Source: Octopus vulgaris | Lineage: Eukaryota | Direction: 5' to 3' | Assembly (NCBI GenBank): GCA_951406725.2 | Contig: OX597843.1 | Span: 7,812,001-7,876,000 of the forward strand | DNA length: 64,000 nucleotides | Part shown: positions 40,091-40,439 of the stretch, one piece after another | How positions within the stretch are numbered: the first letter of the stretch is position 1 | Layout: every line of letters begins with the position of its first letter | Made by a program: the position numbers and the translations under genes | The notes under the pieces: generated by a model | What the model was told of the DNA's origin: nothing | The model's input: only the letters and a program-made list of their open reading frames with translations | Database searches by the model: none

Positions 40091-40439
40091 ATGGTTCCGG
40101 GTTCAGTCCCACTGCGTGGCATCTTGGGCGGGTGTCTTCTGCTGTGGCCCCGGGTCGACCAATGCCTTGTGGGTGGATTTGGTGGACGGAGGCTGGAAGA
40201 GGCCCGCCGTATATATGTATATATATATGTGTATATATGTGTGTGTGTTTGTCCCCCCTAGCATCGCTTGACATCCGATGCTGGTGTGTTTACGTCCCCG
40301 TCACTTAGCGGTTCGGCAAAAGAGACCGATAGAATAAGTACTGGTCTTACAAAAAATAAGTCCTGCGGGTCGATTTGCTCGACTAAAAGGCGGTGCTCCA
40401 GCATGGCCGCAGTCAAATGACTGAAACAAGTAAAAGAGT
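40091..40439 (+). mobile_element. SINE family A, 5'-truncated, with A-to-G cluster
   Basis: Colinear with family A from ATGGTTCCGGG to the tail; 10 A-to-G differences at 40130-40201. Confidence 0.9.

Follow-up and report, generated by a model that had tools for sequence, protein, structure and literature searches.

Conversion of adenosine to inosine in double-stranded RNA by ADAR is established enzymology, and in plant organelles C-to-U edited RNA is retroprocessed into the genome. The organellar case resembles the one described here in that edited RNA is copied back to DNA. In vertebrates, APOBEC3-edited LTR retrotransposons have been reported by Knisbacher and Levanon (PMC4866542) and by Zaranek et al. 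(PMC2873906), with deaminase-made, strand-biased, clustered and motif-dependent germ-line transitions that find their likeness in the octopus copies below. Integrated reverse transcripts of BLV (proviruses) also present at least seven A-to-G changes within ~70 bp, for which ADAR1 is held responsible in the report PMC8025556, which cites HTLV-2 and STLV-3. Hyper-editing of inverted-SINE transcripts, as described by Porath et al. (PMC5625713) and Albertin et al. (PMC9068888), shares with our copies the inverted-pair substrate and the depletion of 5′ G; the same two papers report very high editing in octopus and repeat-directed editing across squid tissues. [quoted passage not shown]

Here we analyse a stretch of 64,000 nucleotides of the Octopus vulgaris genome (C30:7812001-7876000, assembly size 2.80 Gb; hereafter the window) containing a SINE copy with a dense cluster of A>G changes, which a preliminary description had read as an edited SINE RNA written into the germ line. 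Strand bias, a 5′-neighbour rule, exclusion of a subfamily and a parent/copy pair on C22 and C2 support that reading, and we conclude that the cluster most probably represents ADAR edits on a SINE-containing RNA which was then retrotransposed into the germ line.

Results

The window copy is a member of a SINE family (family A) for which one 30-mer has 27,249 exact matches in the genome. Full copies contain box A- and box B-like motifs, which we take to be Pol III promoter boxes, followed by a short-repeat tail. The first ~47 nt of the SINE, including box A, are missing from the window copy, which starts at consensus column 48 and is intact at its 3′ end through the tail (Table 1). One type of repeat lies at both junctions, and the target site was likely a (TATG)n microsatellite. 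Target-site duplications are unusable as evidence because this family rarely leaves clear ones: the window copy is flanked by (TATG)n on both sides, and most unedited family copies also lack clear duplications. The 5′ half of the SINE additionally occurs in tandem arrays with a period of ~167 bp at L111 (C30:13000001-13010000, 30 5′-half copies mapped) and at C1:2101793-2102723.

Table 1. Features of the SINE copy and its junctions (window coordinates)
Feature	Position	Strand	Basis
Young tRNA-derived SINE (family A), 5′-truncated copy	40091..40440	+	sequence comparison
Box B-like motif GGTTCAGTCCC, kept in the truncated SINE copy	40100-40110	+	
A>G cluster, 10/19 adenosines, likely fossil A-to-I edits	40130..40201	+ (SINE sense)	
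(TA)n(TG)n microsatellite, SINE centre; A>G cluster ends just 5′ of it	40210..40249	+	
SINE 3′ half, A>G = 0, GAGTAAAA-type tail at end	40250..40440	+	
(TACG)n(TATG)n repeat, 5′ junction; ATG shared with truncated SINE start	40016..40092	not assigned	
(TATG)n repeat, 3′ junction	40439..40462	not assigned	

An ETS-domain gene (Pfam PF00178), by our assumption ERG/FLI1-like, has its last coding exon at 35765-36328 (+), 3.8 kb upstream of the SINE and on the same strand, so that the window copy may itself be transcribed. Two open frames elsewhere in the window, at 17712-18353 (+) and 19228-19614 (-), resemble decayed LINE reverse-transcriptase fragments and are putatively assigned as such; an RTE LINE is among the elements reported for octopus (PMC9115989).

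The cluster was re-examined by aligning 14 sister copies in the window and by placing the copy on a consensus of the family for which 18 young SINE copies were used. Both procedures confirmed the original count, in which ten adenosines (40130, 40131, 40144, 40146, 40172, 40184, 40191, 40192, 40196 and 40201) had become G, and the consensus mapping returned C>T at 40155 and T>C at 40207 as the only other private changes, again as first described. A>G thereby makes up 10 of the 12 changes in the cluster span; at 40150 and 40205 the copy has variants that are frequent among subfamilies. The 3′ half had been called near consensus and is so: besides one T>C it shows four other substitutions and some small insertions. 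Five of the ten sites had been noted to have a 3′ G; among adenosines followed by G, five out of six are changed. By 5′ neighbour, 2 of 7 adenosines after G are changed against 8 of 12 others, numbers too small for statistics. The binomial probability of at least 10 changes among 19 adenosines is 8e-13 at a background of 2% and 6e-9 at 5%, and a value near 1e-12 speaks against chance transitions. The window holds 19 SINE 5′-half copies, and each of the other 18 shows 0-3 A>G changes. When 178 copies were sampled without bias, from 60 arbitrary 10-kb stretches and the window, the window copy was the single A>G-clustered one, and the bulk rates (A>G 79/4508, T>C 77/5226) reveal no general low-level excess of A>G.

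An assembly or polishing artefact, by base-calling error or by edited RNA reads leaking into the consensus, is a rival explanation of the cluster, and the ten Gs were not seen directly in raw reads. Raw genomic reads of X23 and X24 amounted to ~0.7x (about 3% of each run), with zero coverage of the cluster or its flank, and X21 (organism B) has zero depth on the flank and on 40201-40218, making it uninformative on orthology. Many words of the window stretch recur in several RNA-like runs; the word overlaps of RNA runs X1, X2 and X4 and of DNA run X17 are given no weight as signs of expression. Clustered mismatches may be sequencing artefacts according to Zaranek et al. (PMC2873906), mainly of the G-to-A type in that study. 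Contigs of run X3 (run type not on record) cover the 3′ flank of the copy (40468-40630, a single match in the genome) at a depth of 38, with one SNP and one deletion relative to the window. In the bin 40201-40218, cut at 40207, their mean depth is 11.9, or ~36 over six bases, and a piece at 96% identity or more reaches into 40201-40206; by our reasoning, a piece of at least 31 letters at 96% identity ending there requires four or more of the five Gs close by. None of the listed contig pieces spans the whole cluster, and C7:110922210, which has the same 24-mer as the window copy, is a possible alternative source of the X3 signal. The window Gs are therefore supported only indirectly by independent DNA data. 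An artefact is nevertheless very unlikely: the X3 signal stands at single-copy depth, polarity follows the SINE and not the contig strand (matches are about equally forward and reverse), the changed sites have an ADAR-type neighbour context, and the edited C22 copy described below, with its neutral changes and without a 1.18-kb insertion of its parent, behaves like an old genomic duplicate.

Similarity searches with the window copy and its best match as queries recovered other copies with overlapping yet different sets of A>G changes, and altogether 26 distinct copies with sense-strand A>G clusters, of up to ~30 changes per copy, were found genome-wide. Clusters were called in unique SINE halves of at least 80 bp at p<1e-3, once CpG positions, and any position that varies in more than 10% of random copies, had been masked. 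The collection was A>G-enriched by design; A>G clusters occurred in 21 of its 459 unique 5′ halves and in 8 of its 409 3′ halves, and the corresponding control clusters numbered 1 and 2 for T>C, 0 and 0 for G>A, the sense-strand change expected of APOBEC-type editing, and 0 and 1 (marginal) for C>T. As a strand control, exact genome-wide searches were run with three mirror-matched motif pairs, which gave 16 vs 5, 18 vs 11 and 42 vs 11 matches for A>G and T>C, respectively. In the second pair the site is palindromic and the contexts are identical; the A>G motif of the third pair lies on a known hot spot, which tilts that comparison to A>G. With forced sites excluded, additional clusters of the same type were present in 11 of 71 unique A>G matches and 1 of 26 T>C matches (11:1, binomial p=0.006), and the first two pairs alone gave 5/16 and 3/18 clustered matches for A>G vs 0/5 and 0/11 for T>C. 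The comparison with T>C, G>A and C>T controls proposed in the preliminary description finds A>G clusters to be far commoner among the copies collected here.

The most heavily changed family-A copy is L002 (C6:107344253-107344552), with 19 A>G and zero other non-diagnostic changes in its 5′ half, 11 A>G in its 3′ half, and a central (TA)n turned almost entirely into (TG)n. Most clusters are limited to one SINE half and end at the central microsatellite, both halves being clustered in only 3 of 26 copies. L209, in the C13:81169284 region, is the only copy in which T>C changes cluster in both halves (8/38 and 7/39) when read on the SINE sense strand; a DNA similarity search with it did not find a second T>C-clustered copy among 29 further loci. 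Antisense editing and cDNA deamination are candidate readings of this cluster, for which a flank search did not find a parent. Given one clustered copy among the 178 unbiased ones and 27,249 exact 30-mer matches in the family, the edited class is rare, by an order-of-magnitude estimate about one per thousand copies or fewer.

A G-rich SINE subfamily would produce shared G positions, and a few sites do recur, for example one TAG site in 20 of 21 copies. The A>G patterns of the clustered 5′ halves are nevertheless all distinct (21/21), 241 of 325 site pairs are incompatible with a single tree, several subfamily backgrounds are represented, and the best other copy for the window locus is only 94% identical and has a different pattern. 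Together with the binomial probability, these results largely refute subfamily descent or chance, which we regard as extremely improbable, and they settle the earlier question of a recurring G haplotype by excluding it. As the patterns all differ, fit no one tree and stand on mixed subfamilies, the A>G copies represent independent events; the event is rare and has repeated independently across subfamilies.

Neighbour preference was evaluated on 68 consensus adenosines, each counted once and with forced sites removed. The mean edit fraction by 5′ neighbour was 0.64 for U, 0.52 for A, 0.29 for C and 0.11 for G (p=2e-6), so that the changed sites shun a 5′ G, the neighbour effect of ADAR that had been suggested as a check. 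Sites with a 3′ G had a mean edit fraction of 0.54 (p=0.02; 68 sites), and in 3′ halves 31 of 67 adenosines with a 3′ G were changed vs 69 of 207 others (p=0.06). Ordinary SINE copies are flat at 1-3% across neighbour contexts. Depletion of an upstream G is a motif of ADAR common to animals according to Porath et al. (PMC5625713), who for invertebrate hyper-editing, octopus included, describe a tendency towards a downstream A rather than G; the 3′ G leaning of our sites is a partial mismatch with that report. A lone full SINE folds only weakly (z -2.3), and the predicted fold does not place the hottest sites in a long duplex.

The strongest evidence for an RNA-mediated route, outweighing the window copy itself, is a parent/copy pair in which C22:50596142-50598333 (L219/L282) is a 2.2-kb truncated copy of C2:203481208-203477812 (L283). 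The C2 parent contains two inverted SINEs, seen directly in its sequence and unedited, and the spacer of L219 has a 98% paralogue there. In the C22 copy, a sense SINE has 8+27 A>G changes, and a piece of SINE in inverted orientation is likewise changed A>G, on that same strand. Over its first 1.5 kb it differs from C2 by 68 A>G, 11 T>C, 14 G>A and 15 C>T. The A>G changes fall on 21 of 65 adenosines of the inverted arm and 42 of 82 of the paired direct arm; outside the arms, they affect 1 of 177 in the loop, 1 of 19 in the unpaired SINE head and 9 of 279 in the downstream remainder. In this pair, too, sites after a 5′ G are depleted (5/26 changed vs 58/119, p=0.008). Half of the adenosines (16/32) are changed in that part of the direct arm whose pairing partner survives at C2 only; most simply, therefore, the parent transcript was edited before truncation. 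The copy starts at its 5′ end inside the inverted arm and terminates in a (GAT)n tail of a second SINE-like repeat, an end that would fit what target-primed reverse transcription leaves. It also shows neutral differences from C2 and lacks a 1.18-kb insertion of the parent. Splicing of this stretch as an intron was considered and rejected, since a GT start is absent; the stretch looks like a later transposon insertion in the C2 parent.

Both C22 and C2 harbour a short, presumably hAT-like element (L219:1059-1830) that has inverted repeats at its termini and shows an 8-bp duplication. It carries a full-length match to U6 snRNA (Rfam RF00026, 96 bits), with a SINE directly after it.

In a second pair, C6:12142889-12140737 derives from C2:51677229-51678996 (L258/L306), the main block being 98.9% identical. 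Its inverted arm is changed A>G at 11 of 76 adenosines, vs 1 of 113 in the loop, and the copy ends in a microsatellite that matches its own 5′ flank. The edited young SINE of the C6 copy is absent from the assembled C2 locus, which requires either an insertion polymorphism at C2 or editing after the duplication. In both pairs, the two arms are changed on one strand and the loops are spared. This geometry bears on the proposal of an error burst, caused either by a reverse transcriptase that makes A:dC misincorporations when dNTPs are skewed or by a DNA polymerase that is error-prone and prefers W-A sites; sense polarity and a 5′ U/A preference would be compatible with this as well. A burst would have to change the self-complementary arms and spare loops copied in the same pass (1/177 in C22 and 1/113 in C6), and to convert about half of the adenosines with other errors almost absent, which leaves it hardly any probability.

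For the window copy itself, none of 11 other loci carries its private 3′-half variants as a set, and no source locus was found in this comparison. The sequence upstream of its 5′ repeat belongs to another generic repeat family, for which a close paralogue was not found. Since neither a parent nor a pairing partner of the window copy was found in genome searches with its flank and 3′ half, we infer its route from the class. Among ten edited loci tested, a flank paralogue was found for two (L219 and L258); genome searches did not find one for the window copy, L002, L004, L005, L209, L214, L254 and L267, as expected if in these cases the SINE alone was copied.

The preliminary description had offered two routes, retrotransposition of an edited SINE RNA and conversion of the locus by its cDNA. 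The second belongs to a broader class of in-place write-back, in which the copy's own edited transcript would act through RNA-templated repair or cDNA conversion, or ADAR would act on the DNA strand of an RNA:DNA hybrid; routes of such kind have been proposed (PMC10209271). The position of the window copy on the sense strand downstream of the ETS exon fits such a process, as do the parent of the window copy not found in our searches, the edited SINE present in the C6 copy only and next to an edited inverted arm, and the antisense-clustered L209 with its parent likewise not found. However, SINEs are read both ways by host transcripts, and in-place editing should give A>G and T>C clusters about equally, not the ratio found. 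The nearest inverted sister of the window copy is 6.5 kb off and unclustered. An inverted partner within 1.2 kb accompanies 4 of 26 edited copies vs 27 of 73 random copies, a random set that is weighted to small, SINE-dense contigs and leaves out tandem locus L111, and the partners of edited copies L059 and L064 are unedited. The edits of the C22 copy, moreover, fit a partner that exists at C2 alone. Because edited copies show no enrichment of partners nearby and none lies within 6.5 kb of the window copy, retrotransposition from elsewhere is favoured and the conversion part of the earlier proposal recedes; in-place write-back is unlikely.

Discussion

On the route that we favour, retrotransposition of an edited RNA, a SINE located elsewhere would be transcribed, and part of it would pair, within one transcript or in trans, with a SINE of inverted orientation, as the inverted pair of the C2 parent illustrates. 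ADAR would then deaminate roughly half the adenosines of this duplex to inosine, as the strand, the clustering and the avoidance of a 5′ G suggest. A non-LTR reverse transcriptase, probably that of a LINE, would prime at the SINE tail or at a microsatellite and read inosine as G. Reverse transcription may stop early and leave a 5′-truncated insertion, of which the truncations of the window and C22 copies would be the visible outcome. The edited insertion, presumably made in the germ line, would be inherited and then age neutrally. At the window locus it is most likely an accidental by-product without function.

If this route is correct, an unedited parent hairpin together with its edited retrocopy would be direct genome evidence of edited RNA re-entering the germ line; RNA edits would become heritable, and ADAR activity in the germ line would be implied. 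The question can be put to a simple scan of any repeat-rich genome, human Alus included. Since the effect looks rare, its evolutionary weight may be small. We further suggest, tentatively and as something we hold possible rather than probable, that germ-line ADAR, together with LINE reverse transcriptase that starts from SINE tails or microsatellites in host transcripts, constitutes a standing RNA-to-DNA route for A-to-I edits. Such a route, if it exists, would reach host sequence, diversify SINE families, possibly feed a genomic excess of G at edited sites, and preserve the past specificity of ADAR as a fossil record that can be dated. A full-text literature search did not find a report of genomic ADAR-edited SINE copies, and prior mention is possible beyond its reach.

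Compared with the known systems, retroprocessing in plant organelles differs in enzyme and chemistry, is organellar and proceeds by homologous gene conversion, whereas the SINE copies are new nuclear insertions. The APOBEC3 system generates G>A by C-to-U deamination on the cDNA of LTR elements; the octopus SINEs show A>G in an ADAR context, probably arising at the RNA level, in non-LTR elements (the word ‘ADAR’ occurs 0 times in PMC4866542). The BLV changes, as presented in PMC8025556, are in somatic proviruses of an exogenous virus, while the SINE copies are cellular, come with flanking host sequence, lie in an assembled genome and recur across subfamilies. Transcript hyper-editing, as described in PMC5625713 and PMC9068888, produces differences in the RNA only; in the SINE copies analysed here, the G stands in the genome sequence.
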